From: an uncultured Nitrospinaceae bacterium
GTDB taxonomy: Bacteria; UBA8248
Direction: 5' to 3'
DNA length: 64,000 bases
Assembly (NCBI GenBank): GCA_964440505.1
Contig: CAYTSP010000257.1
Location: 8,756-72,755, forward strand
Shown here: one piece after another, positions 6,663 through 42,855 of the stretch
How positions within the stretch are numbered: position 1 is the first letter of the stretch
Layout of the letters: every line of letters begins with the position of its first letter
Made by a program: the position numbers and the translations under genes
Notes under the pieces: generated by a model
What the model was told of the DNA's origin: nothing
The model's database searches: none
The model's input: the letters and a program-made list of their open reading frames with translations, nothing else

Positions 6663-6688
6663 GCGAAACCTCTTATTCCCTTCGCTTT

Positions 6689-7651: not shown

Positions 7652-7882
7652 CCAAGAGATTCAAAGTCCGTTCCGGGAGACGCGAATGAACATCCGGACC
7701 GAAACCTCCGAGACGCCATATCGCGAACCGGGAAATGGAACGACCAATTTCTTTGGATGATAACAAACATCCTTGATATTTCCAGAAAAACCAAATGCCC
7801 CTGGAGACTCTTGACCCACTCCTATGAGCCACGTTGTGCATAGATACGAAATACGAGTCAATACATAAGCCGCTTCAGAGTG

Positions 7883-9346
7883 TCATTGACGCATTTTGCG
7901 CCTTTTGCCAGCGGGAGAGATGCGCAGTGCTTTGCGGTATTTCGTCACTGTCCGCCTCGCTATCGCCACGTTATCCTGCTTGAGCCTCTCCACAATTTGC
8001 TGGTCGGTGAGCGGCTTCTCCGGGTTTTCCTGTTCCACGATTTTCTTGATTGTTTCTTTTACAGCTACCGAAGAGGCGCTCTTCCCCATTCCAGATTCCA
8101 ACCCGCTGTGGAAAAAATACTTGAGGCTTAAAACACCCTGCGGCGTATCCATATACTTGCCCGTCGTAGCACGACTCACGGTCGATTCGTGCATCCCGAT
8201 ATCCAGCGCCACATCTCTCAAAATCAGGGGCCTCAGGCGACTCACGCCATGGTCCAAAAAATCCCTTTGGAAACGCACTATGCTTCGGCAAATTTTGAGA
8301 ATCGTCTGCCTTCTCTGCTCTATGCTCTTGACGAACCAGGCAGCCGCCCTGAGCCTCTCATCCAAATATTTCCTTGTATCGGGGGAGGTTCCCGCTTTGT
8401 CGGCCGCCATGGCCGCATAAAGAGAATTCACACGCAGGAGCGGCAGTCCATCGTCATTGAGTGCCACCTCATAATCATCTCCCCTTTTGGTGACGCTCAC
8501 GTCCGGGGCCACTACCTCCACCCTTTGTTCGGAAAAACGCAATCCAGGGCAAGGATCCAGACTTCGAATGATGTGGACAGCCCGAATGATGTCGTCCACA
8601 TCGACACCGTTAACCTTGGCGAGTTTCGCATATTGGCGCTCACCTATCTTCTCAATGTCTTCAAGCACCAGGTCTCGCGCCAAATCCACGAAAGAGGTAT
8701 TTCCGTTTATAGATAAGTCAATATTCTTCAATTGTATAAGAAGGCATTCTTGAAGTGTTCTCGCAGCAATGCCCGGCGGGTTGAAACCTTGCACCAAAGC
8801 CAGTGCCCTATCAGCCTCAAGTGGCCCCAGGCCCATGCCCGCCGCCAACTCCTCCACATCAACGTCCAGATAACCCTCGTCATTTACATTCCAAATAATT
8901 TGCTCGGCAACCCTTGCTACCGGTTCAGGGACCACCGAAAGACTCAATTGCCATACCAGGTGCTCATGCAGCGTATCGGAGCGCGCCAAGGTCTGCTCAT
9001 AAGAGGGGAACTCATCTTCGAAGGTTGGAGGCGAGAAATCATTATAATTGTCCTGCACGATGTTTTCCCAATCGATTTCCACTTCGCCTCTTTCATCATT
9101 TTGACTCTCGGGAACATCGTCTCTCAATTCCGGCATCTCGCCATCAGCTACTTCTTGCACTTCATCCTGAATTTCTTCCAGCAAGGGATTGTTCAGCATT
9201 TCCTGCTGAACAGCTTGCTGCATTTCCGTGCGGTTCAGAGGCAAAAGGCCAATCGCCTGCCGCAACATGGCGGTCATGACGAGGCGCTGCTCCCCCCTCA
9301 TCGCCATCTTATGCTGCAAAGCCATCTTTATTCCCCTTGCCTTCAA
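7883..9346 (-). CDS. rpoN: RNA polymerase sigma-54 factor
   Basis: C-terminal RpoN box ARRTVTKYR and HTH. N-terminal Gln-rich region I. 487 aa. Immediately downstream of lptB, the conserved arrangement. Confidence 0.93.
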
Positions 9347-10107
9347 AGACGAAATTTTTCGCCCAGATAAACATCCCGAGCCTTGTCGCTCGAAGCGATT
9401 TCCTCCGGGGCACCGGACTCGAGTATCCGCCCCTCATTGATGATGTATATCCTGTCGGATATTTGAAAGGCCTCGCGTACATTGTGGTCCGTGATGATGA
9501 CCCCGATTCCACGAGCTTTCAGGCCCGCTACAATATCCTGGATATCGTGAACCACAATGGGATCAATGCCGGCGAAAGGCTCATCAAGGAGCATAAAAGC
9601 GGGATTTGTGGCCAATGCCCGAGCAATTTCTACACGCCTTCTTTCACCGCCGGAGAGAGCATAGCCTTTCACGGATTGAATGTGCTCGATATCCAGATCC
9701 TCCAGAATCTCGTTCAATCGCCTCTCGCGCTGGTTTGAATCACGGGAAACCAATTCAAGGACCGCCATGATGTTTTGCCTCACCGAAAGGCGACGAAACA
9801 CAGACGCCTCCTGCGGCAAATAACTAATTCCCTGCTTGGCACGCATATACATGGGCTGGCCGGTGATTTCCCTGCCATTCAAAAAAATCTCCCCCGCATC
9901 TGGAACGATCAGCCCCACAATCATATAAAATATCGTCGTCTTGCCGGCCCCGTTTGGTCCAAGCAGGCCCACGATTTCGCCGGGCTGCACTTCGAGATCC
10001 ACACCGGAGACGACTCTTCGGCCAGAATAGCTTTTCGTCAATCCGGTTGCGCGAACAGAAACAGCACCCGTGCGTCGTATAGCATTGCCATCGGTTCGCG
10101 TAGCCAT
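9343..10107 (-). CDS. lptB: LPS export ABC transporter ATP-binding protein LptB
   Basis: Walker [13 protein letters not shown] signature [15 protein letters not shown], Walker [11 protein letters not shown]. The ORF track extends to 10188, but the conserved N-terminus begins near MATRT, so the start is placed at about 10107 to avoid overlapping lptA. Confidence 0.88.
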
Positions 10108-10111
10108 GAGC

Positions 10112-10705
10112 CTAATTGGATTTTTTACGGCGGGGTGTCTCGCTGGAAGGAAAAAGGGTGACACTGACTCTCCGGCGAGGTGAGCCATGAACTATTGTTT
10201 TGTCCTCTTTCAAATTCAACTCTATTTTGGCGCCGACCAACTGATTCTTTCCTTCCCACACACGAGGACTGCCTGTCAAAACAGCGATGCCGGTAGAGTC
10301 TCGATATTCAAGCCGAGCAGCAGTGGCGAACCTCCTTTTTGCCTGATCCATCCTCACGTTTCCGGTGGCCACAATTCTATCGACTTCCCCTGCATCGTCT
10401 TTGGAATTCGGCCTGCGCTTCGAGCCCGGTCGTTTGGCTTTCAGTGTATATACTTCGAGGCGATTCGCCTTTATGTGCATGTTTCCCTGGTTCGCCTTTA
10501 CATCTCCGATGAACACGATGAGATTCTTCCGGCTGTTCACTTCCATCTTATCGGAGGTAATGTGGATGGGGGCCTTGCGGTCTAACCGGCTTTGCTTGTT
10601 TTTCTGCTGTGCAAATGAGTTAGCGCCGCTCCATAATAAAAAGACCAGGCAAGACCCCAAAGCAATGGGGCCGAGGCGCTTCAGGCGGAAGTTTTTCGGT
10701 TTCAA
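10112..10705 (-). CDS. lptA: LPS transport periplasmic protein LptA (OstA-like)
   Basis: Signal peptide, then an OstA_N-like beta-jellyroll sequence. Located between lptC and lptB. Confidence 0.72.
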
Positions 10706-10740
10706 AACAGCCCTCCATTCGGGATCGGCCGTATATTCCC

Positions 10741-11352
10741 CTAGTTGGCACGAATTGGTTTATTTCCTCTTTCTTGCTTGAGGAAATCCTCTCTCGCACC
10801 GTATATCGTAGCGCTAACTTTCTCCTTCAGTTTATAATTTCCCAGATCGGTTTGCCCTTGCAGGCCGGTACCAACCAGACGAAAACGAGACCCCTCCATC
10901 AAAACCCGCGAATCCGTATCGATACGTTTTTCTTTTGAGCGAAAATACAAAGAGTCTGTTTTCATTGAAACGCCATTCGACGCCAGGATGGTGACATTGC
11001 CGCTGATCCTGATGTTTCGACTCTCGTTCTGCATGGTACCTTCCTGAGCAATCACATGCGCCGGCTCACCTTCTTTCGGATAAAACCGAAGCTTCAGATT
11101 CTTCAGAATGGTCAAACCTTTTTGACGGTACACCTTTGCGGAGTCCGCCCATAACTCCCATTCCCTGACGCCTTTCGTGTTTTGAACAACATGCACTTTG
11201 TCTATATTAACGTCTGCATCCGAGTCGGTGAGCGAAATTTTGCCCACATCAAGATAATGACTCGAAGAACCCACGATGAAATAGGCAATAGTACCGCCAA
11301 TCGCGAGCAGAAAGCCCAGCAACACCATTCTCAGCATCTTACGGAAAAGCAT
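10741..11352 (-). CDS. lptC: LPS export system protein LptC
   Basis: Single N-terminal TM helix plus LptC-like periplasmic domain, 203 aa. Immediately upstream of lptA/lptB. Confidence 0.7.
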   Translation of the reverse strand: MLFRKMLRMVLLGFLLAIGGTIAYFIVGSSSHYLDVGKISLTDSDADVNIDKVHVVQNTKGVREWELWADSAKVYRQKGLTILKNLKLRFYPKEGEPAHVIAQEGTMQNESRNIRISGNVTILASNGVSMKTDSLYFRSKEKRIDTDSRVLMEGSRFRLVGTGLQGQTDLGNYKLKEKVSATIYGAREDFLKQERGNKPIRAN

Positions 11353-14386: not shown

Positions 14387-16306
14387 CTAGGCTTGGCCGG
14401 GCGCCAGGTCAGTCGGCGAGGACTGCGGGTCCTCACGAGGTTTTTCCTCCGGTTGTGGTGTAGCCGAAGTGTTTTCTTCGCCAACCTCGTCTTTTCGCTT
14501 TGGGCTCCTGGAAATTTGTCCGGTTTCCATCAAAGACTCGATATCCTTGAGATCGATGGTTTCATACTCGAGCAACGCATTGGCGAGCAAATCGAGCTTA
14601 TCTCGATTTTCCTCAAGCAATTTATACGCTCTCTCATAACTCGACGAAACCATATTCTTCACTTCATTATCAATTTCAAGGGCCACCTGGTCGCTATAGT
14701 CCCTGTGTTGGGAGATTTCACGTCCCAGGAATATCTGCTCATGTTTTTTCCCATATGCCAAAGGACCGAGTTTCTCGCTCATCCCCCATTCACAAACCAT
14801 GCTTCTCGCCAAGTCAGTCGATGTCTGGATGTCGGCTTTCGCTCCTGTCGTTAATTCCTCAAAAACCAACATCTCCGCCGCACGTCCACCCATCAGGCAA
14901 GCAAGCTGGTTCGTCAAAAATGTTTTATCGTTGCTATAGCGATCCTCAAGAGGTGAAGACCACGTGCTTCCCAGCGAAAAACCTCGCGGGATGATCGTCA
15001 CCTTCTCGACGGGATCCGTCCCGGGTATCAGCAATGCAACAAGGGCGTGCCCCGCTTCGTGGTAGGCTGTATTTCTCTTCTCCTTTTCGCTGAGCGCCAT
15101 GCTACGCCGCTCCTTGCCCATCAAGACTTTATCCTTCGCTTCCATCAGGTCTTCATTTTCGACAGAGCGTTTGCCCCGGCGCGCCGCAAGAAGTGCGGAT
15201 TCGTTCAAAAGGTTCGCCAGATCAGCGCCCGCAAAGCGCGGAGTCCCACGCGCTATAAGATTCAAATCGACGGAATCATCAAGCGGCACCTTCTCCGAAT
15301 GCACTTTCAAAATCGCCAAGCGCCCTTTAATGTCAGGCAGGGAGACAACAATCTGGCGGTCAAAGCGACCTGGACGGAGGAGAGCCGGATCCAACACGTC
15401 CGGCCGGTTCGTCGCCGCCATCAGGATGACCCCGTCATTCGATTCAAAACCATCCATCTCGACAAGAAGCTGATTGAGCGTCTGCTCACGCTCATCGTGG
15501 CCGCCACCGAGGCCGGCGCCCCTGTGCCGCCCGACAGCATCAATCTCATCAATGAAAATAATGCACGGCGCATTCGACTTGCCCTGTTCGAACAAATCCC
15601 GAACCCTCGACGCCCCAACCCCGACAAACATCTCCACAAAACTAGAGCCGCTTATCGAAAAAAACGGCACATCCGCTTCGCCCGCGATGGCGCGCGCCAG
15701 CAGGGTTTTGCCCGTGCCGGGAGGACCAACCATAAGAACACCCTTGGGAATACGTGCGCCCAGGCGCGTGAACTTTTGCGGATCGCGGAGAAAATCAACG
15801 AGCTCTTCGAGCTCTTCCTTTGCTTCCTCGATGCCGGCCACATCCGCGAACGTAATCTTTTTCTTCGCGGATTCGGGCATCATACGCGCTTTGCTTTTTC
15901 CGAACGAAAGAGCCTTGGAGCCGCCCATTTGCATCTGACGCATGAAGAAAATCCAAACGCCCAGCATCACCAGCATAGGCAGCCAACTCAACAACATATT
16001 CATATACCAGGAGTTTTGTTCTACCGGCTGTGCCGTGATGCGAACTCCCTTGGCCCTGAGGGTGTCGATCAATTTCGGGTCCTTTGGAGCGTGGGTATGG
16101 AAGGATCTGCCGCTAAGGTAGCGGCCCCGGATGTTGTCACCCTGGACAATCACTTCGCTCACCTGTCCTTCAGATACCGCTTGCAGAAAATCGCTATAAA
16201 CAACCGTTCTGTCCGTCGAACGTGGGCTGTTGAAGGCCTGGAACAAACCCACCATTATCAACCCGATAATCAGCCAAAGTGCCAAATTCTTGTAAAATTG
16301 ATTCAA
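14387..16306 (-). CDS. ftsH: ATP-dependent zinc metalloprotease FtsH
   Basis: Two N-terminal TM segments, AAA Walker [12 protein letters not shown], zinc motif HEAGHAL. 639 aa. Confidence 0.95.
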
Positions 16307-25244: not shown

Positions 25245-27377
25245 TCAGCCATGAACTTCCATCAACTTCTTGACCAAAGCGACATTATGTCGGTGGCCAC
25301 TTCTCTCCGCGGTCACTTTCCCTCGGATAGGACGACCGGTTAAATACAGATCTCCGATAACGTCAAGAATTTTATGTCGAACGAACTCATTGGGAAATCG
25401 CAGTTGGGTATTCACGACACGCGCCTTGTCCACAAGAATCACGTTATCCCAACGACCCCCCTCGGCCAGGCCCATTTTCTCGAGCGACTCCAATTCAGAA
25501 ACAAAACCAAACGTACGAGCGGGTGCGATTTCTTCTTGAAAACTCAATGCATTCTTATGTTCATACAGATAGGATTGTTTTCCAATCGGCTCAGGATAAT
25601 CGATGAGGTATGAAACGGAAAAAGAATCCGCTGGCTCTATACGAATATAACCCTTCTCGTCGGCCGGCTCACCTATTTCGTAAACCTTATCAACCCACAA
25701 GTCTTCGCGTTTTTCCTTTTGATCCTCAATACCCGCTTCTTCAAGCAAGCGGCAAAACTCCACTGCCGAGCCATCCATGACGGGCACTTCCTCGCTCATC
25801 TTGATGAGTATATTGCTAATCTTATAAGCGTGCAGCGCGCTCATCAGATGCTCTATCGTTCGAGCCGTCACAGCTCCATTGCGCAAGTTCGTCGCATGGT
25901 TGGTACCAGCCACAAAATCGACATTCGCCCTCACAATATCGGGGCTCGTCACGCTGCCGAACTGAATCCCGCTCCCCGGCGGCAAGGGTTCAATGATTAA
26001 TCCCGTTTTCAGCCCTGAATGAAGCCCCCGACCATACAACACGACACTCTTCGAAATACTCCTTTGATTTGTTTCCCTAAGCGTCGCTGAAGCCGGTAAT
26101 ACGGGCTCTATATCGTATGCTTTAATTTTTCGCTTTAAAGCAGGCTCCGTCATACCTACAGCCTGGGCGGTTTTGTTGATATCCCAGCCGTGCTCTTCCA
26201 AATGGAAGGACAGGTATTGCCTCTCCCACTGAGTTCTGGCCACATTAAAATTGGATGGGACGTCGTCTTTTGATGTATCCGCCTCGAAATCAGAAACTTC
26301 GCGTATCGCATGCGGCAAGTGGGCGATTCGAATCTCCGATCCTTGTGATGCATATGCTGCTTTGGTCACTGCGCCTTTTAGTTCAGCTATATTGCCCGGC
26401 CAGTCATAGTCTTCTAGTAGTGCAATGACATCCTCTGAAAATTTCTTTTCATGCCTGCCAATTTCAGTGCATTCATTCAAAAACCTGTTGGCTAACGGTA
26501 GAATGTCCTCTTTTCGTTCGCGCAAAGAGGGCAAATTTATTACATCGGCGCCTATTTGGGTGGACAAGGTTCGTACGTAAGTCTTGTCTTTCGGGGTCCC
26601 CATGTGATCAAGGGACACCACCAAACGTATTGAATCCTTTGCATACCCAAGGAATCGAGCGAGAAACCTCTCACGCTCCGCCATGGGCAACTGCTCCAGA
26701 CCATCAAGATATACCGTCCCTTGAAAGGTATCGGGCACCAGCCGCTCCAGTGTCTCTTCCCATTCGTTTACCTCAGGCACCGGAAACAGAGAGCGGCAAT
26801 GAACTGGCCTAAAGCCTTCTTCTTCCTTGATACCATTCTTATGAATCACCTTTGCAATAAAACGCTTGCCGGTTCCCCTTTCGCCCGCAATCAACAAGGG
26901 GCCAATATCTTTCGCCGCCCTCCTGATAGCTCTTCGAACCCTTTGAATACTCTTGCTGGCGCCGTCAAGCATCACATCAACGACATCATTTACCTTGAAT
27001 TCCTTGGCCCTTCGCGACTGAACAGCGGAATCGACTATACGCAAAACCGCATCAATAGACAGAGGTTTTTCAATAAAATTGAAAGCGCCCAGCTTGGTTG
27101 CGGCCACCGCGGTTTCAATATTACCGTGACCAGACATCACAACGACTTCGATATCCGCGTTCGACTCCTTCACCGCTTGCAAAGTCTTGATTCCATCAAT
27201 GCCCGGCATCCACACATCAACCAAAACCACATCAGGAGTTTCAGTTCGAACCAACTGAAGGGCAGTTTCTCCAGACTCCGCCCGCTCTACACGATACCCT
27301 TCATCGTGCAAAACATCTTCCAGGCTGGCGAGTATCTCACGCTCATCATCGACGATGAGGACATGTCCCTTATCCAA
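25245..27377 (-). CDS. Fusion protein: NtrX/NtrC-family response regulator (receiver, degenerate AAA+, Fis-type HTH) joined in-frame to UDP-3-O-acyl-N-acetylglucosamine deacetylase LpxC
   Basis: A single stop-free 710-codon frame on the minus strand. Residues 1-120 form a receiver (DDE pocket, phospho-Asp in VLVDVWMPGIDG, conserved S/T and K). Residues about 135-345 are sigma-54-activator-like AAA+ (GERGTGK Walker A, RERKEDI, YDWPGN), then HTH TQWERQYLSFHLEEHGWDINKTAQAVGMTEPALKRKIK. Residues 435-710 align along the full length of LpxC (NQRSISKSVVLYGRGLHSG, TIEHLM, MDGSA, ARTFGF, FVRHKILDVIGDL, RSGH). Starts with TTG and overlaps the ntrY stop by 8 nt. Confidence 0.8.
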   Translation of the reverse strand: MDKGHVLIVDDEREILASLEDVLHDEGYRVERAESGETALQLVRTETPDVVLVDVWMPGIDGIKTLQAVKESNADIEVVVMSGHGNIETAVAATKLGAFNFIEKPLSIDAVLRIVDSAVQSRRAKEFKVNDVVDVMLDGASKSIQRVRRAIRRAAKDIGPLLIAGERGTGKRFIAKVIHKNGIKEEEGFRPVHCRSLFPVPEVNEWEETLERLVPDTFQGTVYLDGLEQLPMAERERFLARFLGYAKDSIRLVVSLDHMGTPKDKTYVRTLSTQIGADVINLPSLRERKEDILPLANRFLNECTEIGRHEKKFSEDVIALLEDYDWPGNIAELKGAVTKAAYASQGSEIRIAHLPHAIREVSDFEADTSKDDVPSNFNVARTQWERQYLSFHLEEHGWDINKTAQAVGMTEPALKRKIKAYDIEPVLPASATLRETNQRSISKSVVLYGRGLHSGLKTGLIIEPLPPGSGIQFGSVTSPDIVRANVDFVAGTNHATNLRNGAVTARTIEHLMSALHAYKISNILIKMSEEVPVMDGSAVEFCRLLEEAGIEDQKEKREDLWVDKVYEIGEPADEKGYIRIEPADSFSVSYLIDYPEPIGKQSYLYEHKNALSFQEEIAPARTFGFVSELESLEKMGLAEGGRWDNVILVDKARVVNTQLRFPNEFVRHKILDVIGDLYLTGRPIRGKVTAERSGHRHNVALVKKLMEVHG
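25248..26075 (-). other. lpxC: LpxC deacetylase domain of the fusion CDS (boundaries approximate)
   Basis: Aligns from the residue that corresponds to E. coli LpxC Met1 (here a GAA codon at 26075..26073) to the C-terminus. Zinc/catalytic residues E78-H79 (TIEHLM), H238/D242/D246 (FVRHKILDVIGDL) and H265 (RSGHRHN) are all present. Confidence 0.8.
26076..27377 (-). other. NtrX-like regulator module of the fusion CDS: receiver (about 27377..27018), AAA+ (about 26975..26342), Fis-type HTH (about 26246..26118)
   Basis: Domain order and motifs as listed for the parent CDS. The AAA+ part lacks GAFTGA and carries DG instead of DE in Walker B. Confidence 0.7.
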
Positions 27378-29634
27378 TGGAAGCCGTCCTTTCCTTTTCA
27401 GGCGTGATGTCCACAGCAGGCGCCAATGGCAACGTTACGCGAAAAACAGAACCCGCTGGATAGTTATCTCGCACGCCTATCGTTCCATTATGGTCCGCCA
27501 CAATGCGATGACATATAGCTAAACCCAACCCCGAGCCTCTGTCTTTCGTAGAAAAGTAAGGAGAGAATATATGGCCTTTCACGTCTTCCGATATACCCTG
27601 CCCCTGGTCGGCAACTTCAACGACTATCATATTTCTGTCCGCATCACTCCATGCCTGCAAATCTATCTCGCCTTCGACCTCTTGGGATTCAAAGGCATTT
27701 TCCAGCAAATTGATGAACACTCGCTGCAACTGTTCGGGATCCGCCATGACCGCTGCATTCCCTGCAGTGATTTGAATGGAAAATTCCACATTCCCTTTTC
27801 TGCCACGATATAAATTCGCAACATCTTCAATGAGGGGAGCAAACCCGCAAAGCCTCAACCTCGGCTCCGGCATTCGTGCAAACCGGCTGAATTCATTCAC
27901 CATTTCAATCAGACTCGTTACTTGATTGATAATAGTATCCGTACAAGATTCAAATACTTCCGCAAAATCATAGGCTTCACTTTCAAATTTTCTTCTCATT
28001 CTCTGAGCAGAGAGCTGAATCGGTGTAAGCGGATTTTTGATCTCATGCGCGATGCCACGAGCCACTTCTTGCCATGCGGCCACTTTTTGAGCCCGTATCA
28101 AAGCCGTCAAATCATCAAACACAATGACTGCTCCGAGCCTGCCACCATCCGCGCTTTTGAGCAGGGTCAAGCTCGCGCGTAGCGTCAGTACGCGGCCATC
28201 AATCATGATCTCCACTTGCTCCGAAGCGCTTTGGTGTTTTCGATCCCTCATTGAACGCATCAACTGACGGACGGGTTCGAGATGCGCGCTTTCGAAAACC
28301 TCGCTGAACATTCGACCCACGGCATCTTGAGGCTCAACGCTCAGCAACTCCCCAGCCGCTTTGTTGAGAATAGTAACGCGACCCCGGCGATTGATGGATA
28401 TCACACCTGCTCCGATATTTTCGAGCATCGCTTCCATATATCTGCGCCTTCTGTCGATCTCCAGGTTGGAGCGGCGCAGGGTTTCAGAAGACTCTTCGAT
28501 TTTCTCTTTGTTGGCCAATAATTCTTCTGTCATGCTGTTGAATGTGTTGACCAAAATACCTACCTCGCCATCTGCTTGCGCATCTACGCGATGTTCGAGA
28601 TCGCCATCCGACACCGCCCTTGTGGCTTCCGCCAGTTTTTCGATGGGAACCGTGATCCCGCGCGCAAGGTAGAAGCCAAACCATATGGCGGCAAACAAAA
28701 TCAGCAAGGTGACCACCAAAAAAGTGATGATGTAGTTGGCTTTAATTGGGTTCTTGGACAATTCCAACTCTTTATAATTCACGAAAGAATCGGAGATGCC
28801 CCTGATCCTCTCCACGAGCCTATCTGAAACATATTTGGATACGACGATAAACCCCACCACTTTTTTTTGAATCTTCAGAGGCGCCACGCCATAGATGACA
28901 TCGCCTTTTTCCCAGTTCTCTATACTCGAGCGCGACTCCCCATCAATCACCTGATCCACGTATCCCACCAGTGGTGAGAATGTTGCGGCTCGTTCCAACC
29001 CCGGACGATTGACCGATACGATCTCTTTTCGACCCCTATCGTAGAGTTGGATGAAGTCTACCCCCAAGCTCTTTCTCTCGGACTCTAATTTTTGTTCAAT
29101 CGCCTTGGGGTTTGCTAATATGTCGGAGTGCGACTTCTCCAACATAAGCGCTACTCTACTCGCACTGAACAGCGCGTTTCGCTCCACCTCCCGATAATAC
29201 GTTTGAGCCACCTCGAACGACCCTTTGAGCGCTCTCTCCACATTCATGTTGAACAAGGCGTTAAAGCTTTGGTTTATCAGGCCGCTGGCCACCACAAAAA
29301 GAGCCACTACAGGGATGAGCGTAAATCCGACAAAAGCCAACACGAGCTTTAATTGCAAGCGCGAACGGCCGGCGCCCGTTCTCCCCTCGTAGTAAAGACG
29401 CACCAAGTGCTTTGCCACCAAAAGAATAGCCACCATGAGCAGAATGATGCTCAGGTTCACAAGCGAAAATACAACGACGTTGTTAAGCAGGGGGACTCCC
29501 GGTTCAAGCTCCTTGAAGTAAATCCAGGCCGCGAACGAAAGAGTCGCTATGATGATCAAGGCGATGAAAGAGCGCAGAAGCGTTCTTCGTCGACGGGAAG
29601 AGATTTCCAGATTTTTCAGTCGCTTTGGATACAA
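27370..29634 (-). CDS. NtrY-like sensor histidine kinase (N-terminal multi-TM region, HAMP, PAS, HisKA, HATPase)
   Basis: 754 aa. H-box ARGIAHEIKNPLTPIQLSAQRM is the NtrY-type signature. N, G1 and G2 ATP-lid motifs. Several N-terminal TM helices. Confidence 0.85.
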   Translation of the reverse strand: MYPKRLKNLEISSRRRRTLLRSFIALIIIATLSFAAWIYFKELEPGVPLLNNVVVFSLVNLSIILLMVAILLVAKHLVRLYYEGRTGAGRSRLQLKLVLAFVGFTLIPVVALFVVASGLINQSFNALFNMNVERALKGSFEVAQTYYREVERNALFSASRVALMLEKSHSDILANPKAIEQKLESERKSLGVDFIQLYDRGRKEIVSVNRPGLERAATFSPLVGYVDQVIDGESRSSIENWEKGDVIYGVAPLKIQKKVVGFIVVSKYVSDRLVERIRGISDSFVNYKELELSKNPIKANYIITFLVVTLLILFAAIWFGFYLARGITVPIEKLAEATRAVSDGDLEHRVDAQADGEVGILVNTFNSMTEELLANKEKIEESSETLRRSNLEIDRRRRYMEAMLENIGAGVISINRRGRVTILNKAAGELLSVEPQDAVGRMFSEVFESAHLEPVRQLMRSMRDRKHQSASEQVEIMIDGRVLTLRASLTLLKSADGGRLGAVIVFDDLTALIRAQKVAAWQEVARGIAHEIKNPLTPIQLSAQRMRRKFESEAYDFAEVFESCTDTIINQVTSLIEMVNEFSRFARMPEPRLRLCGFAPLIEDVANLYRGRKGNVEFSIQITAGNAAVMADPEQLQRVFINLLENAFESQEVEGEIDLQAWSDADRNMIVVEVADQGQGISEDVKGHIFSPYFSTKDRGSGLGLAICHRIVADHNGTIGVRDNYPAGSVFRVTLPLAPAVDITPEKERTASIG

Positions 29635-29637
29635 AAT

Positions 29638-30243
29638 TCACATTCCTTTAGAGCTGAACGTCCGGGAATAGCTCCAATCAGAATTCTTCCCCCAAAAAGC
29701 GAGTAAATAATTAAAGGGAAAAACAAAATCCACATGATTCAATCGCGCTCTGATTTTGACATAATATTGACCATTGAGGGACAAAGCCTCGCCAGACAGA
29801 ATGGGTGTACCATTCAATTCACGCATCCAGTCCATCATTTCGCCCTGGCTTTTCGTCACTTTTCTTTCAATGTCTTTCGCGCCTTCTCTGAGATGAAAAG
29901 TGTATGTTTTTTTCAGGGCGCTATATTTCACTTGATGATGCAATTGCCGCGCAGAGACTTCCAGATCATAGATCAGCTTGCGAGAGCGGAGGAGACTTAC
30001 ATCAAAGATGAACTTCGTGGTCACACCGCTATGGATGGCTTCCAGAAGTTTTGGCGAAAATACGCCCAGAAGAGAACCAAAAACGAGCAACTCCCCTTTC
30101 TTTTCAACAACGACGATATCCTGTATTCGAATTCCGCCTTGGTCATCCGTTGCGGAGAGCGCCGGCCCGACCAGAAAGAAGAGCACACAAATGGCTATGC
30201 TTAATTTTCTCAGAACAAATGTTTTCTGGAAGTTAGATAACAT
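29638..30243 (-). CDS. DUF4390-like periplasmic/secreted protein, the conserved first gene of ntrYX-type operons
   Basis: 201 aa with an N-terminal hydrophobic signal. This position (4 nt upstream of ntrY) and size match the DUF4390 gene that precedes ntrY in beta-proteobacterial operons. Family assigned from memory of that context, not from a computed search. Confidence 0.5.
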   Translation of the reverse strand: MLSNFQKTFVLRKLSIAICVLFFLVGPALSATDDQGGIRIQDIVVVEKKGELLVFGSLLGVFSPKLLEAIHSGVTTKFIFDVSLLRSRKLIYDLEVSARQLHHQVKYSALKKTYTFHLREGAKDIERKVTKSQGEMMDWMRELNGTPILSGEALSLNGQYYVKIRARLNHVDFVFPFNYLLAFWGKNSDWSYSRTFSSKGM

Positions 30244-33059: not shown

Positions 33060-33458
33060 TTACTCCGCCTTCGATTCACGGGGGGATAGGCTCATCCGGG
33101 ATTTGGAATCGGATTGCGAGGTAAGTTCATTACGCGCAGTTGTGGATTCTTCGGTCGCAGGATTTCCCATTGGGAGGAACTTGCCACTTTGCTCCCGCGC
33201 CTCATCCAGATTACTCTCCAGCGACTTGACTTCCCGCTTCAATTTCCCGATTTGGGTCCTGAACTTCAACCTGTCTAATGCGCCACCAAGCCATGCCACC
33301 ATGAACCCGCATGCAAACACGGCCAATAGAACGTAAAAAAGAGGCAAGTTGATGCTGCCTTGATAATAGGCAACAGTCACCGGCTTCATATTGATGACAC
33401 CGAAGCTCAGAATCGCCAATGACAGGATCAAACCGATGATGAGTCGAAGGCTGCCCAT
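33060..33458 (-). CDS. LapA-like (DUF1049) inner-membrane protein
   Basis: Two N-terminal TM helices followed by a coiled-coil, charged C-terminus. 132 aa, typical of the LapA/YciS family. Confidence 0.55.
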   Translation of the reverse strand: MGSLRLIIGLILSLAILSFGVINMKPVTVAYYQGSINLPLFYVLLAVFACGFMVAWLGGALDRLKFRTQIGKLKREVKSLESNLDEAREQSGKFLPMGNPATEESTTARNELTSQSDSKSRMSLSPRESKAE

Positions 33459-33652: not shown

Positions 33653-34132
33653 TCAAGGATTCCCCGGTGTTTGTCGAGACAGCCACTCCCCCTCAAGCAG
33701 ACAGGCCATCCTTTTTTCTTCCTGACTCATGCGCGCGGATTCCGACTTTGTGTCATGATCATATCCCTTGAGATGCAAAAGGCCATGCACGAGCAGACGA
33801 TCCGCCAGGACGCCGTAATCAACCGACTCCACTTGCGCTTGGCGAAGCACTTCATCCACGCAAATGACCACTTCTCCTAAAAATGTATCCCTCTCTTTTT
33901 GCTCACCCGGGGCCGGAAAGAAACCCGCCGGCGGAAAAGCCAACACATCCGTTGTTTCGTCTTCTCCCCGATATCGAGAATTCAACGCTCGCATCCTCTC
34001 GTCTCGAATGAATGCGATGCTGAACCAATCATCTTCGGACCGGAGAACTTTCCGTATGACCTCCAAGCGTTGCCTCAGCGCTTTGTGATTCAGCGTGAAT
34101 AGCTTTTGCTCGTTTTTGACGAGGACTTCCAT
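33653..34132 (-). CDS. ybeY: Endoribonuclease YbeY (rRNA maturation factor)
   Basis: Zinc motif HGLLHLKGYDH and conserved VLAFP. The ORF track starts at 34198, but the conserved N-terminus begins at MEVLV (34132). Still overlaps the upstream HD-domain gene by about 100 nt. Confidence 0.85.
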   Translation of the reverse strand: MEVLVKNEQKLFTLNHKALRQRLEVIRKVLRSEDDWFSIAFIRDERMRALNSRYRGEDETTDVLAFPPAGFFPAPGEQKERDTFLGEVVICVDEVLRQAQVESVDYGVLADRLLVHGLLHLKGYDHDTKSESARMSQEEKRMACLLEGEWLSRQTPGNP

Positions 34133-36593
34133 TCGCAGCCCCTTTCTTAGGAGCATCTTCTTGTCCTGGATAATGAATCCGGTGATGATGAATGCCAACC
34201 AAAACGCGCATGAATGCGTCCTGAATGTTGCTCAAATCCCTGAACGTGAGGCTGCAATTATCCAATTGCCCCTCCATGAATGCACTCTGGACGATTCTAT
34301 CCACCAAGGCGCTGAGGCGCCCGAGAGAATGATCCGAAAGCGAATGCGACGATGCCTCCACCATATCCGCCAACATCAGGATGCCCGCTTCTCTCGTCTG
34401 CGGTCTCGGCCCTGGATAGCGAAAAAATTCTTCTGTCACGTCATCTCCATTTTCCTTCTTCGCTTTCTCGTAAAAAAATCGAATCAAGGATGTGCCATGA
34501 TGTTGCTGAATTAAATCGATAATCTCTTTGGGTAGCTGATGGCTTCGAGCGAGCTCCACTCCTTCTTTGACATGGCTGACCAGGATGAGCGCGCTCATGT
34601 TGGGTTTGAGTCTATCGTGACGGTTTTCCCGCCCCTGGTTCTCAATGAAATATTCCGGCTTCATCATCTTGCCGATATCGTGAAAATAAGCACCCACACG
34701 AGTGAGAAGCGGATTTGCGCCGATTGCCTCGGACGCCTCCTCCGCCAAGTTGCCGACGAGAAGACTGTGGTGGTAGGTGCCCGGCGCGCTGACGACCATC
34801 TTTCTCAGCAGCGGGTGATTCTGGTCGGCCAACTCCAAAAGACGCATATCGGTCGTGAGTTTGAAAACCGACTCGAGCAGGGGCATGGCGCCCGCCACGA
34901 TGATGACGTTCGAAAGGCCACCGAGCAACGCGATGGGAATTTCCGGCCACTGCGTAATCGCGGCACGGAAACCCTCCTGCACGTTGAAGCCCAGAGCGAG
35001 CGCGGCGCCCAGTAAACCCAGGATCAGCGCCACGATGAGCACGGAAGTTCTGCGCCGATATTCTTTCCAGCGAATGGCCGCCAGCACGCCGCCGCCCAGG
35101 GCGACAAGGCTGAAGTTGATGTGATTCGGCAAAATCAGTCCGGTTAAAACAGCGGAGAAAACCGCCATCAACACCGCGGATGAGCGTCCCTGCAAAACGG
35201 CTGCAAGAAGAGAAGCGGAACAAAATGGAATCACATAGTAAAACGAGTGGAGTGGAATTCCTCTGAAAGTTTCATGCAGCACTTCCGAGAAGAAAATGCC
35301 CAATTTCAGCAATACGGCTTGGCTCAAAAGCAGTATTACAAAAAGTGTTACGTTTTTTTGCGATGATAAAAAGCTCATGTCGTATTTCTGCACACAAATC
35401 CATGCGAGAACGAGCAAAATGAAAATCACCAGCCCTGTTCCGGTGAAGTTGCCGACCACATGGCTTTGCCGGTAGATTTTCTGCAGACTCTTGAGTTTTA
35501 TGATCTGCCCTTCACTCAATCGTTCTCCCTCGCGAACAATCATCTCCCCTTGCTTGAGGACCTCGGAAACCGGCGGGACGGAGGCTGCAACCTTTTCCCT
35601 GCTCTCGAGCGTCGCCCTGTTGTTGAACGTCAACGTCGGCTGAACCATCTTCAAGACCTGGGAGACCAGGAGATCGCTGACATGCCGAGGAATTCTGAGG
35701 GACATCTTTTGAATTTCTCGCTTGAGCAATTCATCGACCTGCCTGAGTTCCAGGGGATTCATCGATGGGCTGACGGAGACTCGATTCCCCGTTCTGATGT
35801 CGCGCGCCGTAATCCCCTTCGCCGCATGTGTGGCGTACAATCGCTTGTCACTCACAATTTGGCGCGAATACGCCACCTTCAAAAGTTTTGCGATATCCTC
35901 CCGGATCGAGTTTGCGAATCTTTCACCTCTCAACCAATTCGACAATTTCTTTGGAACAGCACCACCCACCAGCTTATGAAACGCACTCTCCGCCGTCATA
36001 AAGGCAGGTGTAGCGTACAATTCCCGATAAGCTTCCGACTCGGATAAAAGTGACGGGTTCTTCTGTTTGGCGCGTATGTTCAACTGCTCGGCTTTTACCT
36101 TCTCGAGCTCTTTGTCTACCGTCCGTTGAATGGATTCAAAAGCGCCGTTCAATTTGGTATGGACAACTTTTGAAAGTTGGGTATCGATATCGTAGCGTGG
36201 CAAGACTTTTTCTCTGGCTGCTTGGCGCTTCGCATTCGTAGCGATGGGGTCGACCACGCGCATATCCTGAGGGGCTTTGATGTCCCTGGGGACGACATCG
36301 CCCACTTCAAAAGACACGCGAGGCGCCGAAAGGTCGGTTGTAAGCAGGAACGAGAGCACAACGGCGAGCGTTCCACCCAGAATCCATGGGTAGGCCCTTG
36401 TGTTGGCAAACGCCAGGACATAACCCGCGAGCGACCGCCCCAGCGACTTAAATCGTCGCAAAAAGAAGTTTTTGGGTTTCCCGGCAGTTTTTCCGACGCC
36501 GGCTCGATGAATCACGCGACCAACCTCCAGAATCCTTCGCGATGAAGGGATCGTGGACGTATCGGCTATATGTGAACGCCCCGGGCAATGCAA
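34029..36593 (-). CDS. 7TM-receptor HD-domain phosphohydrolase (PgpH/YqfF family)
   Basis: 854 aa. Extracellular N-domain, 7 TM helices, C-terminal HD domain (HHSLLVGNLAEEA...HDIGK). Conserved phoH / HD-protein / ybeY operon order. Confidence 0.8.
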   Translation of the reverse strand: MHCPGRSHIADTSTIPSSRRILEVGRVIHRAGVGKTAGKPKNFFLRRFKSLGRSLAGYVLAFANTRAYPWILGGTLAVVLSFLLTTDLSAPRVSFEVGDVVPRDIKAPQDMRVVDPIATNAKRQAAREKVLPRYDIDTQLSKVVHTKLNGAFESIQRTVDKELEKVKAEQLNIRAKQKNPSLLSESEAYRELYATPAFMTAESAFHKLVGGAVPKKLSNWLRGERFANSIREDIAKLLKVAYSRQIVSDKRLYATHAAKGITARDIRTGNRVSVSPSMNPLELRQVDELLKREIQKMSLRIPRHVSDLLVSQVLKMVQPTLTFNNRATLESREKVAASVPPVSEVLKQGEMIVREGERLSEGQIIKLKSLQKIYRQSHVVGNFTGTGLVIFILLVLAWICVQKYDMSFLSSQKNVTLFVILLLSQAVLLKLGIFFSEVLHETFRGIPLHSFYYVIPFCSASLLAAVLQGRSSAVLMAVFSAVLTGLILPNHINFSLVALGGGVLAAIRWKEYRRRTSVLIVALILGLLGAALALGFNVQEGFRAAITQWPEIPIALLGGLSNVIIVAGAMPLLESVFKLTTDMRLLELADQNHPLLRKMVVSAPGTYHHSLLVGNLAEEASEAIGANPLLTRVGAYFHDIGKMMKPEYFIENQGRENRHDRLKPNMSALILVSHVKEGVELARSHQLPKEIIDLIQQHHGTSLIRFFYEKAKKENGDDVTEEFFRYPGPRPQTREAGILMLADMVEASSHSLSDHSLGRLSALVDRIVQSAFMEGQLDNCSLTFRDLSNIQDAFMRVLVGIHHHRIHYPGQEDAPKKGAANGSPRQKRAKAIHAESQSAEATLGGHTESSPVRR

Positions 36594-36614
36594 GTTACTC
36601 TTGAGAGAACTCGC

Positions 36615-37571
36615 TTATAAACTGTGGGCCTCGTATGCAGAAACGATTCTTCTCACCAATTGCGTGCGAACTACATCTCGTTCACTAAAATAGACGAAAC
36701 AGACTTCTTCCAACTCCCCCAAGACGTCTCGAGCGTGGATCAACCCGCACCCGGAAGTTTCGGGCAAATCGATCTGCGTAATGTCCCCCGTCACGACCGC
36801 TTTGCTCCTGGTGCCAAGGCGGGTGAGGAACATTTTCATCTGTTCGGGCGTCGTGTTCTGCGCTTCATCCAGGATGATGAAAGAATCATTCAGCGAACGA
36901 CCCCTCATATATGCGAGCGGCGCTATCTCTATCTCACCTCTTTGAATAAACCGCTCCACCCGCTCGAATTCCACCATATCGTTCAGGGCGTCAAACAATG
37001 GCCTGAGATATGGATTCACTTTCTCCTGCAAATCACCAGGCAAAAATCCGAGTTTCTCGCCTGCTTCCACCACCGGCCTCGTCAACACGATGCGGGCATA
37101 TGCCCTCTCCAACAACCCGGAAACCGCCATCGCCATGGCCAGATAGGTTTTCCCCGTTCCGGCTGGTCCTATTCCAAATGTTACCCCTTTTTCGCGAATC
37201 GACCTGATGTATTCACTCTGGACCGGGCCCTTGGGAACAACGTATCGTTTCTTCGATGAAACTGATATCCGATTCGCCACCAACGAGCGGAGCGTAACGT
37301 CTTGTTCCGCCGCAACGGCCTGAGCCAGTGTCTTGACGTTCAGCGGATCGAACCGAAACCCTTCGTCCACGCATTCCGTTAACTCGTCCAGGAAGAGTCG
37401 GGCCTTCTCGGCGGCATCGGGCGGGCCTTCAACCACGAAGCCCTCAGATACGATCCTGATTTTTACGCTAAACGCCCTCTCTAACGCCTTGAGAGATTCA
37501 TCCCGGTTTCCAATGATATGAACCAACCTGTCCGGCCCGGCCAGCGGGCTTGCTGACATCCTTGTCGCCAA
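36615..37571 (-). CDS. ybeZ: PhoH-like ATPase (YbeZ)
   Basis: P-loop GPAGTGKTYLAMA, PhoH family, 318 aa. Confidence 0.9.
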   Translation of the reverse strand: MATRMSASPLAGPDRLVHIIGNRDESLKALERAFSVKIRIVSEGFVVEGPPDAAEKARLFLDELTECVDEGFRFDPLNVKTLAQAVAAEQDVTLRSLVANRISVSSKKRYVVPKGPVQSEYIRSIREKGVTFGIGPAGTGKTYLAMAMAVSGLLERAYARIVLTRPVVEAGEKLGFLPGDLQEKVNPYLRPLFDALNDMVEFERVERFIQRGEIEIAPLAYMRGRSLNDSFIILDEAQNTTPEQMKMFLTRLGTRSKAVVTGDITQIDLPETSGCGLIHARDVLGELEEVCFVYFSERDVVRTQLVRRIVSAYEAHSL

Positions 37572-37698
37572 AAGATCAGGCTCCCCGTATCTATATGTCT
37601 CGGCTATCTACAATCGAATTCCCATGCGCCATCAGATCGTATGCTCTAGAACTACAGGCGTCAACAAAAGAACTTTACTTTCGTTTCGCTTTTTTTCT

Positions 37699-38706
37699 TT
37701 ATCCCCTCGGGTGGCTCTTGTCCAAAAGTCCCCGCAGTTTTTGCCTGTCCACATGCGTGTAAACCTCGGTGGTGGAAATATCCGAATGCCCGAGCATCGC
37801 CTGGACGGCCCGCAAGTCGGCCCCGTGACTAAGCAGATGAGTCGCAAAGCTGTGCCGGAATACATGGGGACTCACGCCCTTGCCCACGCCCGCTTCTTTC
37901 GCCCATCTCTTGACCCTCGCCCAGAAAGCTTGACGGGTCATGGGCCCTCCCCGGCTCGTGAGAAATACATAATCCGATCTCCGGGCGCGAAGAAGACTCA
38001 GCCGAGCGGTATCCAGATAATCCGCAAGCATTTCTTTCGCCGCATCTCCTACGGGAACAAGCCGGGATTTATCTCCTTTGCCATGGACGATGCAAAATCC
38101 CGATTCAAGTTCAATTTGATTCAGCTTGAGTCGAATGATCTCGCTGACGCGCATGCCGGTGGCGTACAAAAGCTCGAACATGGCCCTGTCCCGAATCGCC
38201 TGCGGCGTTTTGTCATCGGGCGCCTGCAGAATCCTGGACATATCTTCTTGAGAAAGCGTCTTGGGCAAACGCTTCCACTTCGAAGGTTGCACGATGTCCG
38301 CCGTAAAATCCTCTTTTATATCCCCATCGCGGACCAGCAACCTGGCCAGCGCGCGAATGGACGCCAGGTGCCGCCGAAGGGTGGTATCCGATTTTCCCCT
38401 CTCCCGTTTATCCTTGAGATAATCGATAACGGTGCTTTTCGACCAATCCGCCGGTGAAACATCCTCGTTTTCTTGCAGCCAATAGAAAAACGATTCGATG
38501 TCCCGCCCGTAACTCTCCACGGTATTGATCGCACGACGACGCTCGATCAGGAGAAAATCCCTGAAAGTCCTTAAGGTATCGACCAAGCGGGCATCCAGCG
38601 ATACGCCATTATTTTTTTCATGATCTTCGGTCGAAAATTTTTCTGTCGTCAACGTCCGAACCTCATTGCTCAGGATTTGCCCCATGTGAGGCGGGTGAAA
38701 CGACAC
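37699..38706 (-). CDS. xerD: Tyrosine site-specific recombinase XerD/XerC
   Basis: Phage-integrase N-terminal SAM-like domain and catalytic domain with R...HxxR...Y (LGHSDISTTEVYTHV). 335 aa. Housekeeping context. Confidence 0.78.
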   Translation of the reverse strand: MSFHPPHMGQILSNEVRTLTTEKFSTEDHEKNNGVSLDARLVDTLRTFRDFLLIERRRAINTVESYGRDIESFFYWLQENEDVSPADWSKSTVIDYLKDKRERGKSDTTLRRHLASIRALARLLVRDGDIKEDFTADIVQPSKWKRLPKTLSQEDMSRILQAPDDKTPQAIRDRAMFELLYATGMRVSEIIRLKLNQIELESGFCIVHGKGDKSRLVPVGDAAKEMLADYLDTARLSLLRARRSDYVFLTSRGGPMTRQAFWARVKRWAKEAGVGKGVSPHVFRHSFATHLLSHGADLRAVQAMLGHSDISTTEVYTHVDRQKLRGLLDKSHPRG

Positions 38707-41767: not shown

Positions 41768-42304
41768 CTAAAAGCCCTCTAATACGAGGCTCACGAGGTC
41801 TTCCGACAGTGAGTCGGCTACCTGTTGATTGGCGTTCGAACGGTTTGCGTCGCTTCGCGCGATGGATGAGGAAACCGCGAATTCGGCATAAGACTCCATG
41901 TCCTGATTGATGAGCAATTTCCTCCGCTCTTTGTTATGCAGCCGTATTCGGGTGCGCACAACGACACGATATTGCAAAGCCCTGTCAGTCCGAGTGAAGC
42001 CAATTGGAGAGAGGCGATACTCGCGTAAAACGCCTTCAAGAGCGATATCCGCATCGGGGGAGCCGGTAACCCGAAGGCGACCGTCCCGCAAGAATCTCCC
42101 TATTACAGCTTTCGTAACGGCGCGCCCCAGGCCCGGCTCGTTCGTCTGGTTCCGGAATGGTGGTATCGAAATCGTTCGAGCGTCCTTAAGGTCCCTGGGG
42201 CGCAATGTTCCCTCGAGGTCGTAGCCGCAGCCCGCCGTCAGGAAAACGATAAGCAGGAGAGGGAAACGGAGCGTACGGATCATCCTCAAAAGTACTCCGC
42301 TCAA
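41768..42304 (-). CDS. lptE: LPS-assembly lipoprotein LptE
   Basis: Lipobox LTAGCG, LptE-like body, 178 aa, immediately upstream of holA. Confidence 0.68.
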   Translation of the reverse strand: MSGVLLRMIRTLRFPLLLIVFLTAGCGYDLEGTLRPRDLKDARTISIPPFRNQTNEPGLGRAVTKAVIGRFLRDGRLRVTGSPDADIALEGVLREYRLSPIGFTRTDRALQYRVVVRTRIRLHNKERRKLLINQDMESYAEFAVSSSIARSDANRSNANQQVADSLSEDLVSLVLEGF

Positions 42305-42855
42305 ATGAAGACCTCCAAGGAGAGTTCTCGATTTTTCACGCTGCTAAAAGCAATTTGCTCGCTCAGCGCAATCAACTCGTCATAATTCTCGTCATCTGGT
42401 TCGCAAACAAGAATATCGACATCCCAGGGGTTTCCGATGACGCCCCGTATCGCACCGTTCATGATCTCCGTGGCCACGGGAGCGAAGCCGCCGGGGAGTT
42501 GCGCAAAGCCTGAAACCTGCAACGACAAATTCTTCGCCGACGTCTTCATCATTCTTCCAAAAATCTCCTTCGCGCGCCGGTAGAGCTTCGTCAGGGTCAA
42601 GTCCTCCAAAGAACCGACTCCTGCGAACAAAACGTATTCGGGCGCGAGTCGTCCTTTTGAAGCCAGCATGGCCTGGGATTCCCATACACCGCTCAATTTG
42701 CCTTGTTGCACCAAGCGGCTCGCCTCGTTTTCCAGCAAGCGATCGATCGCTCCCAGTCGCCCTTGAAACGGAAAATCTTCCACCGCGAACATAGAGACAG
42801 CGGCGAAGCTCTTTACCTCGTGCAGACCCTGAGGAAACAAGCGAAGGCGAATCAC
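42301..42855 (-). CDS. Hypothetical protein resembling the N-terminal (non-catalytic) domain of leucyl aminopeptidase PepA
   Basis: By-eye alignment to the PepA N-domain: AAVSMFAVED vs SACIVVGVFE, LVQQGKLSGVWESQAML vs LLRRGELEGKPGQTLLL, YVLFAGVGSLEDL vs RILLIGCGKEREL. No M17 catalytic domain follows. ATGA overlap with lptE. Confidence 0.5.
   Translation of the reverse strand: MIRLRLFPQGLHEVKSFAAVSMFAVEDFPFQGRLGAIDRLLENEASRLVQQGKLSGVWESQAMLASKGRLAPEYVLFAGVGSLEDLTLTKLYRRAKEIFGRMMKTSAKNLSLQVSGFAQLPGGFAPVATEIMNGAIRGVIGNPWDVDILVCEPDDENYDELIALSEQIAFSSVKNRELSLEVFI

Follow-up and report, generated by a model that had tools for sequence, protein, structure and literature searches.

LpxC as the C-terminal domain of an NtrX-type response regulator in an uncultured Nitrospinaceae bacterium and its relatives

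In the uncultured Nitrospinaceae bacterium represented by assembly GCA_964440505.1, the deacetylase LpxC is encoded as the C-terminal part of an NtrX-type response regulator. The gene lies on the minus strand at 25245..27377 of a 64,000-nucleotide stretch of contig CAYTSP010000257.1 (positions 8,756 to 72,755), hereafter the window, to which coordinates refer unless another locus is named. A preliminary description of the window had proposed this fusion from the letters alone; it is confirmed here as real, and what had been claimed for its sequence holds except for the completeness of the AAA+ module. LpxC catalyses the flux-controlling, essential step of lipopolysaccharide (LPS) synthesis and is a major antibiotic target, and to our knowledge its regulation outside the enterobacteria is largely open. 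Response regulators with an enzymatic output are a known kind, and the literature found suggests that LpxC is undescribed as such an output domain. A literature search in which subscription journals were thinly covered returned no description of a receiver-LpxC protein; the only LpxC fusion it returned was LpxC-FabZ, which the preliminary description had correctly named as a known one (PMC3087551). The reading favoured here, as somewhat probable, is that phosphorylation of the receiver by a sensor kinase sets LpxC activity.

Domain architecture of the fused gene

The frame comprises 710 codons from a TTG start to the stop codon at 25245-25247 and is free of internal stops, in agreement with the preliminary description. 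Searches of the product with profile hidden Markov models (HMMs), which that description had suggested as a check, matched each of the domain types expected (Response_reg, Sigma54-type, HTH_8 and LpxC). From the N-terminus, and all on the minus strand, these are a receiver (REC; residues 6-114, 27036..27362; Pfam Response_reg, 7e-30) with the codon of its phosphoacceptor D54 at 27216-27218, a degenerate NtrX-type AAA+ module with its lid (residues 139-366, 26280..26963), a Fis-type helix-turn-helix (HTH; residues 383-421, 26115..26231; Pfam HTH_8), a flexible linker of 16 residues (422-437, 26067..26114) and a complete LpxC catalytic domain (residues 438-706, 25260..26066; Pfam LpxC).

Residues 1-434 had been taken for a complete NtrC/NtrX-type regulator, which is borne out by Pfam for the receiver and the Fis-type HTH but not for the AAA+ part, which is degenerate. 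The AAA+ region is matched by Sigma54_activ_2 over residues 139-285 (2.5e-10) and by AAA_lid_14 over 286-366 (5e-21), while Sigma54_activat covers residues 139-196 only, corresponding to model positions 3-60 of 168. The HTH_8 model (PF02954) is passed marginally, at 24.2 bits against a cut-off of 22. Among NCBIfam models the best match of the N-terminal part is the NtrX equivalog NF051870, at 246 bits and under its cut-off of 600 bits, and in comparison with the PDB residues 5-421 are closest to Brucella NtrX (5m7n, 1.3e-47).

The C-terminal part is LpxC from end to end, as had been proposed. The Pfam LpxC model (PF03331) is matched over positions 1-267 of 268 (2.7e-83, 280 bits, cut-off 27), its score of 238 bits against TIGR00325, the lpxC equivalog of NCBIfam, exceeds the cut-off of 187, and residues 437-705 match the LpxC structures of Pseudomonas aeruginosa, Aquifex aeolicus and Escherichia coli in the PDB (1e-46 to 1e-42). 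None of the 116 aligned family members deviates at the equivalents of E. coli E78, H79, T191, F192, H238, K239, D242, D246 and H265, among which H79, H238 and D242 are the zinc ligands and E78, T191, K239, D246 and H265 are catalytic; the E. coli reference sequence has the expected residue at all nine positions, and its motifs agree with the PDB alignments. In the fusion, E509 and H510 (E78 and H79) lie in TIEHLM, H668, K669, D672 and D676 (H238, K239, D242 and D246) in FVRHKILDVIGDL and H695 (H265) in SGH, and T622 is the equivalent of T191, so that the earlier claim of a full set of zinc and catalytic residues is upheld by both the E. coli and the PDB alignments. The ratio of nonsynonymous to synonymous substitution rates (dN/dS), calculated here and below between the window and five relatives, is 0.03-0.06 for this domain. 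Judged by its sequence, the LpxC domain is likely to be catalytically active.

The protein stops 4 residues past the LpxC domain, and the 305-residue E. coli LpxC chain 4mdt_A aligns over its positions 3-274 with fusion residues 437-704. The LpxC step is under tight control in other bacteria, and in E. coli LpxC is controlled by FtsH degradation via its C-terminal end, according to work cited in PMC3333781. Because the fusion ends so soon after the domain, it has no counterpart of the C-terminal end that this degradation needs.

Distribution of the fusion

Homologues were sought among 5.8 billion proteins and grouped in clusters at 90% identity. More than 100 clusters, with identities between 96% and 38%, are matched along their whole length and have an identical Pfam set, and more than 40 hold full-length homologues of 705-711 residues at 69-96% identity to the window protein. 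The clusters with the full architecture are drawn from NCBI, ENA, JGI and Logan assemblies, several on contigs of 2-4.4 Mb, and the search for proteins with both LpxC and regulator domains that the preliminary description had recommended is thereby answered from independent assemblies. The nearest loci, L001 and L002, have 99% identity in the LpxC part. A scan of GTDB species genomes, which used narrow peptide patterns, reported one locus per genome and was blind to divergent paralogues, placed the long fusion in metagenome-assembled genomes (MAGs) whose labels are Nitrospinota, Nitrospinaceae, Thermodesulfobacteriota, Syntrophaceae and Desulfomonilaceae; GTDB genomes of Brachyspira also have an LpxC fused to a receiver, and database labels also include Tectomicrobia and Schekmanbacteria. 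The family is already public, its members being named plain 'LpxC' or 'NtrX'.

Between the window and the five relatives the frame is intact at a synonymous divergence (dS) of up to about 1, and the fusion junction is conserved codon for codon in seven divergent loci. The preliminary description had also asked whether relatives encode two separate genes that differ from the window by an indel, and no intact relative shows such a split. An internal start giving a free LpxC was considered and rejected, there being no conserved in-frame start with a suitably spaced Shine-Dalgarno sequence. The sole broken copies, L008/P0054 and P0334, come from assemblies in which neighbouring genes are also frameshifted. 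L008 (4549-9345, in a long-read MAG), the source of the 511-residue 'AAA-LpxC' protein P0054, reads as a kinase open reading frame (ORF) of 887 residues, a fusion ORF of 629 residues and an ORF of 287 residues that joins the LpxC tail to purM, a disruption that is most likely due to assembly indels. Two candidates for a free LpxC within the fused clade were set aside as evidence for fission or paralogy, P0326 as a contig-edge fragment and P0334 as part of a frameshift-fragmented contig, where it lies behind split kinase pieces.

Short forms and a probable single origin

The family also includes short forms of 412-483 residues, which consist of the receiver, a linker of 22-66 residues and LpxC and whose diversity is at least equal to that of the long form. 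The best 150 representatives at 50% identity comprise about 22 complete short and about 15 complete long clusters, together with two complete REC-HTH-LpxC intermediates and one such fragment. A neighbour-joining tree was built from 41 fused and 27 free LpxC domains; it is a simple tree whose free forms were sampled neither widely nor at random, and in it the fused domains make up one clade (98/100) and the short forms are polyphyletic, at several places inside the long-form clade. The fused clade has the signature residues V446, T458, H516, K526, C542, L648 and T657, which Brachyspira shares. These patterns suggest a single origin of the receiver-LpxC fusion.

The two intermediates, P0302 (491 residues) and P0304 (505 residues), combine receiver, HTH and LpxC and lack the AAA+ module, which indicates that the middle region has been trimmed in more than one way. 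The short form P0053 keeps the last HTH helix ('...THLRQKIKAYDIE...') ahead of LpxC, and its locus is arranged as in the window both upstream, with a LapA-domain gene, mutS, DUF4390 and a 754-residue NtrY kinase overlapping by 8 nucleotides, and downstream, with purM, purN, lolA, rseP, ispG, proS and tilS; the HTH remnant and the shared gene order mark this as a deletion of the middle module in place. Window synteny with a short form, here of 457 residues, is also seen in the Nitrospinaceae locus L006. The conserved core is the receiver plus LpxC, and the AAA+ module has been lost repeatedly. Beta-proteobacterial NtrX proteins that have no AAA+ domain have been described (PMC13001219) and parallel the losses of the middle module in the fusion family.

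In Brachyspira, all of at least 120 clusters have a receiver-LpxC protein of 426-435 residues. Named carriers are B. hyodysenteriae WA1 (ACN83743.1, 434 residues), B. pilosicoli P43/6/78, B. hampsonii, B. intermedia and B. suanatina, and the proteins are all named merely 'UDP-3-O-acyl-N-acetylglucosamine deacetylase'. In B. hampsonii 30446 (L023), the glyS gene beside receiver-lpxC appears split into ORFs of 133 and 541 residues (5213-7305, minus strand), either by a frameshift or by a sequencing error, and a sigma-70 family factor of 284 residues directly follows receiver-lpxC.

The receiver and its kinase

The receiver is of NtrX type by its sequence. An HMM of the family's receivers gives 123 bits for the receiver of Brucella NtrX and 131-147 bits for those of Brachyspira, while the unrelated CheA, CheB and hybrid-kinase receivers of locus L012 score 47-65 bits. 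In 75 long forms D10, D11, D54 and K104 never vary and S82 is conserved to at least 90%, while 24 short forms, those of Brachyspira included, have all five residues without exception. The receiver has a dN/dS of 0.02-0.05. To judge by this pocket and by the overlapping kinase gene, it appears to be switchable by phosphorylation.

A sensor histidine kinase of the NtrY type (754 residues, 27370..29634, minus strand; NtrY_N, HAMP, PAS, HisKA and HATPase_c in Pfam) lies directly upstream, its stop codon overlapping the start of the fusion by 8 nucleotides. The preliminary description had noted this overlapping kinase, to which a third component can now be added, a DUF4390 (PlrP-like) protein of 201 residues (29638..30243, minus strand; Pfam DUF4390, 4.9e-26) with an N-terminus that, judged by eye, resembles a signal peptide. 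The operon thus reads DUF4390, NtrY-like kinase, fusion, with mutS upstream and purM and purN downstream. The kinase is directly upstream of the fusion in 12 related loci (L001-L009, L011, L015 and L083), and the DUF4390 gene is kept upstream of the kinase in L001-6, L008, L009, L011 and L083. For NtrYX-family systems, a recent proposal makes the DUF4390 protein PlrP a third component, located in the periplasm and acting on PlrS, a kinase of the NtrY family (PMC13001219).

A different layout occurs in L012 (16-6056) and likewise in L013, from Syntrophaceae and 'delta proteobacterium' MAGs, where CheA, CheB and a PAS-HisKA-HATPase kinase with three receivers precede the long fusion, suggesting a chemosensory-type or phosphorelay input. 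No adjacent kinase was seen beside the Brachyspira receiver-LpxC loci examined.

The middle module

The AAA+ module of the fusion keeps the glycines and the lysine of Walker A (GERGTGKR). Its Walker B motif is YLDG, with D-G where NtrX has D-E and hence without the catalytic glutamate; outside the window's clade the motif has D-D, S-N or F-A, and D-E is rare. The sensor II arginine is replaced by alanine (NIAELKG), and the GAFTGA loop is absent from the window protein and from 85 of 85 long forms. With neither GAFTGA nor a competent AAA+ domain, the two features by which bacterial enhancer-binding proteins are recognised, the module, to go by its sequence, cannot be a sigma-54 activator. The window does encode sigma-54 (rpoN, 7886-9346), yet the fused regulator lacks the loop for contact with it.

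Purifying selection acts on all modules, unevenly along the protein. The AAA+ module with its lid has a dN/dS of 0.16-0.22, which is 4-6 times that of the flanking domains, and the linker one of 0.2-0.6, whereas within the window's clade the HTH stands at 0.03-0.09. Several lineages outside that clade have no detectable HTH (L010, L012-14). Across the family, identity with the window protein is about 75% in the receiver, 40% in the middle and 70% in LpxC at mid distance (e.g. P0045), and about 50%, 23% and 52%, respectively, at far distance (e.g. P0118).

A proposed route from receiver phosphorylation to LpxC activity

In the mechanism that we favour, the membrane-bound NtrY-type kinase, with the periplasmic DUF4390/PlrP-like protein as its probable modulator, would sense a condition of the envelope or periplasm and phosphorylate D54 of the receiver, and the phosphorylation state of the receiver would set the amount of LpxC activity in the cell, the direction of the change being left free. 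The most likely route would be direct gating of the tethered LpxC, either by occlusion and release in the style of CheB or by phosphorylation-driven dimerisation; altered protein stability would be a less likely one. The argument for this mechanism is that several lineages keep only the receiver and LpxC, with pocket and catalytic site invariant, which suggests that the state of the receiver controls the output of LpxC, and we know of no role for a receiver domain except that of a phospho-switch on whatever it is attached to. Independent links of the signalling family with lpxC, in R. sphaeroides, in D. vulgaris and in locus L038 (all described below), also count in its favour. Constraint persists in the window's lineage on the HTH and, more weakly, on the ATPase-dead AAA+ scaffold, so that the long form there probably binds DNA as well, like NtrX, and would then be a bifunctional regulator and enzyme. 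That receiver gating of LpxC replaces the proteolytic control of enterobacteria, having arisen once and being now present in lineages labelled Nitrospinota, Tectomicrobia, Schekmanbacteria and Thermodesulfobacteriota and in the pathogen genus Brachyspira, is a broader proposal for and against which we would lay even weight.

Several observations weigh against control of LpxC by its receiver. The AlphaFold model of the full-length protein (mean pLDDT, the predicted local distance difference test, 81.6; pTM, the predicted template modelling score, 0.46) consists of well-folded domains on low-confidence tethers, and that of a short form (pLDDT 79.2, pTM 0.74) has a disordered linker of 40 residues; these models, of monomers in a single state, offer no confident arrangement of the domains and speak neither for nor against a defined receiver-LpxC interface. 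The linkers of the short forms vary in length over the range given above and are poorly conserved, which fits a loose tether as well as it fits gating. The input modules also vary: the window has an NtrY-like kinase, L012 has CheA/CheB together with a hybrid kinase, and in Brachyspira the neighbouring genes include no kinase. Finally, the HTH is as constrained as LpxC in the window's clade, so that in the long form phosphorylation could have a purely transcriptional role.

This last point leads to an alternative that we consider unlikely, in which NtrX and LpxC were fused for co-expression or stoichiometry, after the manner of a 'Rosetta stone' protein, phosphorylation controls DNA binding or transcription, and LpxC is a constitutively active passenger. 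It would agree with domains that are predicted to fold independently on flexible linkers (pLDDT falls below 50 at residues 427-432, in the linker, and the full-length pTM is low), with the strong purifying selection on the HTH in the window's clade and with the precedents of NtrX, which regulates the transcription of envelope genes in Rhodobacter (PMC7240162), and of LpxC-FabZ, which is likewise a fusion of pathway neighbours (PMC3087551). However, the DNA-binding and AAA+ parts have gone missing in several independent deletions, every one of which left the receiver beside LpxC, and a receiver without an output other than LpxC would make no sense if LpxC were only carried along. Moreover, the phosphorylation pocket is invariant in the short forms, including those of Brachyspira.

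Less probable still is a reading of the fused LpxC as a sensor or an accessory paralogue, with a separate canonical LpxC doing the housekeeping and the fused one binding substrate or product for feedback on the regulator or providing a conditional second activity. PutA and BirA are examples of bifunctional regulators in which an enzyme domain serves as the sensor. Domains that serve as sensors only usually lose their catalytic residues, whereas here the catalytic and metal residues are invariant in 116 proteins down to 38% identity at a dN/dS of about 0.04 and the equivalog cut-off of TIGR00325 is exceeded, and the short forms have no regulatory output on which a sensor could act. No second LpxC-like ORF was found in the 64-kb window. 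In B. hyodysenteriae WA1 the annotated LpxC (ACN83743.1) is the fused form, and a genome-wide BLAST and HMM survey that included this strain reported duplications of lpxA, lpxD, lpxH and lpxL and none of lpxC, its supplement listing gene presence only (PMC3087551). On the favoured reading the fused lpxC would be the housekeeping copy.

That an indel merged separate ntrX and lpxC genes, or that an internal start yields separate products, has next to no probability and is already refuted by the comparative data: the close relatives are in part long-read MAGs and some are frameshifted (L008/P0054 and L082), but the observed frameshifts break the fusion rather than create it, and more than 100 independent clusters, whose sources include short-read assemblies, long-read assemblies and RefSeq isolates, have the same in-frame junction, which in the seven divergent loci is conserved at the codon level and has no in-frame start with a Shine-Dalgarno sequence.

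If phosphorylation of the receiver does set LpxC activity, it would couple an envelope sensor directly, at the post-translational level, to the flux into lipid A, and NtrYX-family systems, whose earlier link to the envelope and lpxC is indirect, would gain a physical connection to the lipid A pathway. The short form of cultured Brachyspira (B. hyodysenteriae, B. pilosicoli and B. hampsonii) makes the idea directly testable, and work with LpxC inhibitors on Brachyspira pathogens should allow for the extra receiver domain.

Genomic context and other lpxC loci

The window is otherwise of housekeeping character, and its host is clearly an LPS-exporting diderm. The minus-strand cluster lptC-lptA-lptB-rpoN-hprK (6692-11352) and lptE (41771-42304) show that the genome has LPS export machinery, and the window also carries murJ, lolA, rseP, ftsH (14390-16306) and a gene for a small LapA-domain protein (33060-33458, minus strand; PF06305, 3.4e-14). 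This last gene is directly upstream of mutS, in the same place as in L083, and no LapB-like gene was seen adjoining it. In E. coli, LapA is encoded with LapB, an adaptor for the degradation of LpxC by FtsH. Between mutS/ybeY and murJ (34032-38706, minus strand) are genes for a receptor-type 7TM-HD phosphohydrolase of 854 residues, phoH and a XerC/D-like tyrosine recombinase of 335 residues, and the arrangement of 7TM-HD, ybeY and mutS is common to the window and L083. An ORF of 184 residues (42304-42855, minus strand) has a weak Peptidase_M17_N match (2.8e-5) without the catalytic domain and may be a truncated or divergent protein of the leucyl aminopeptidase N-terminal domain type. Scans for promoters and terminators gave no excess over shuffled controls, with 5 promoter-like sites against a shuffled mean of 6.3 and one terminator-like site against 6.4.

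Unfused lpxC genes stand in settings of their own. In three loci of Desulfobacterales MAGs (L038:5190-10614, L029:5677-8181 and L045:1760-3560) the gene right behind lpxC is DUF4390. In the Desulfobacteraceae locus L038 it is succeeded by an NtrY-like kinase and then by waaA, the gene for the 3-deoxy-D-manno-octulosonic acid transferase, with no adjacent response regulator, in L029 an NtrY-like kinase cut by the contig end follows, and in L045 a phosphoribosyltransferase takes the place of the kinase. The gene order of L038 shows a DUF4390/NtrY sensor pair embedded among lipid A genes without a fusion. In ten Nitrospira/Nitrospirota loci, a NarL-type regulator (REC and GerE) is encoded about 300-400 bp upstream of a free lpxC on the same strand (L059:7015-7686, and in the same position in L035, L040, L051, L056, L060, L063, L066, L076 and L077). 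It has 223 residues in nine of them and is called as 290 residues in L056. This adjacency may represent another pairing of a regulator with lpxC or only the synteny of the lineage.

Comparison with known systems

The closest relatives of the regulator part are found in NtrY/NtrX and its PlrS/PlrR counterpart. The N-terminal 421 residues of the fusion have NtrX as their best match and share with it the NtrX-type receiver and the lack of a GAFTGA loop, and the order DUF4390, ntrY, regulator is that of plrP-plrS-plrR (PMC13001219). The fusion departs from NtrX in its complete C-terminal LpxC, in the loss of the Walker B glutamate and in its score against the NtrX equivalog (246 against 600 bits), and NtrYX and PlrP were described from Proteobacteria, to which its lineage does not belong. 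In Rhodobacter, NtrX is a transcription factor for envelope genes, and deletion of ntrYX in R. sphaeroides raises lpxC mRNA 8.8-fold and increases LPS, with no NtrX site found at lpxC (PMC7240162). A transcriptional connection of another kind is known from Desulfovibrio vulgaris, where lpxC is the sole mapped target of the response regulator DVU2934, and in S. fumaroxidans lpxC adjoins an operon orthologous to the DVU2934 system (PMC3333781). DVU2934 acts on transcription, and regulator and lpxC are distinct genes in that system. The fused deltaproteobacterial locus L012, with CheA, CheB and a hybrid kinase upstream, does not have the DVU2931-2934 layout, and the fusion is likened to the DVU2934 system by analogy only.

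In their build, the short forms of the fusion resemble CheB, with a receiver, a flexible linker and a catalytic domain, and PleD/WspR and RpfG are enzymatic-output regulators too. The active site of CheB is occluded by its receiver until phosphorylation of the receiver frees it. For the fusion such gating is a working analogy, the long form having AAA+ and HTH domains between receiver and enzyme, and the enzyme at its output, a zinc amidase, belongs to an essential biosynthetic pathway and not to signalling. Compared with the stand-alone LpxC of E. coli, P. aeruginosa and A. aeolicus, the fused domain is likewise full-length with all catalytic and zinc residues, but it carries the N-terminal receiver module, lacks the C-terminal tail of the E. 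coli enzyme and falls in a separate clade. LpxC-FabZ, reported from Bacteroidetes, Chlorobi and Verrucomicrobia (PMC3087551) and also found here in the Omnitrophota loci L047 and L064, joins a metabolic neighbour to the C-terminus of LpxC, whereas in the present family a signalling module is joined to its N-terminus.

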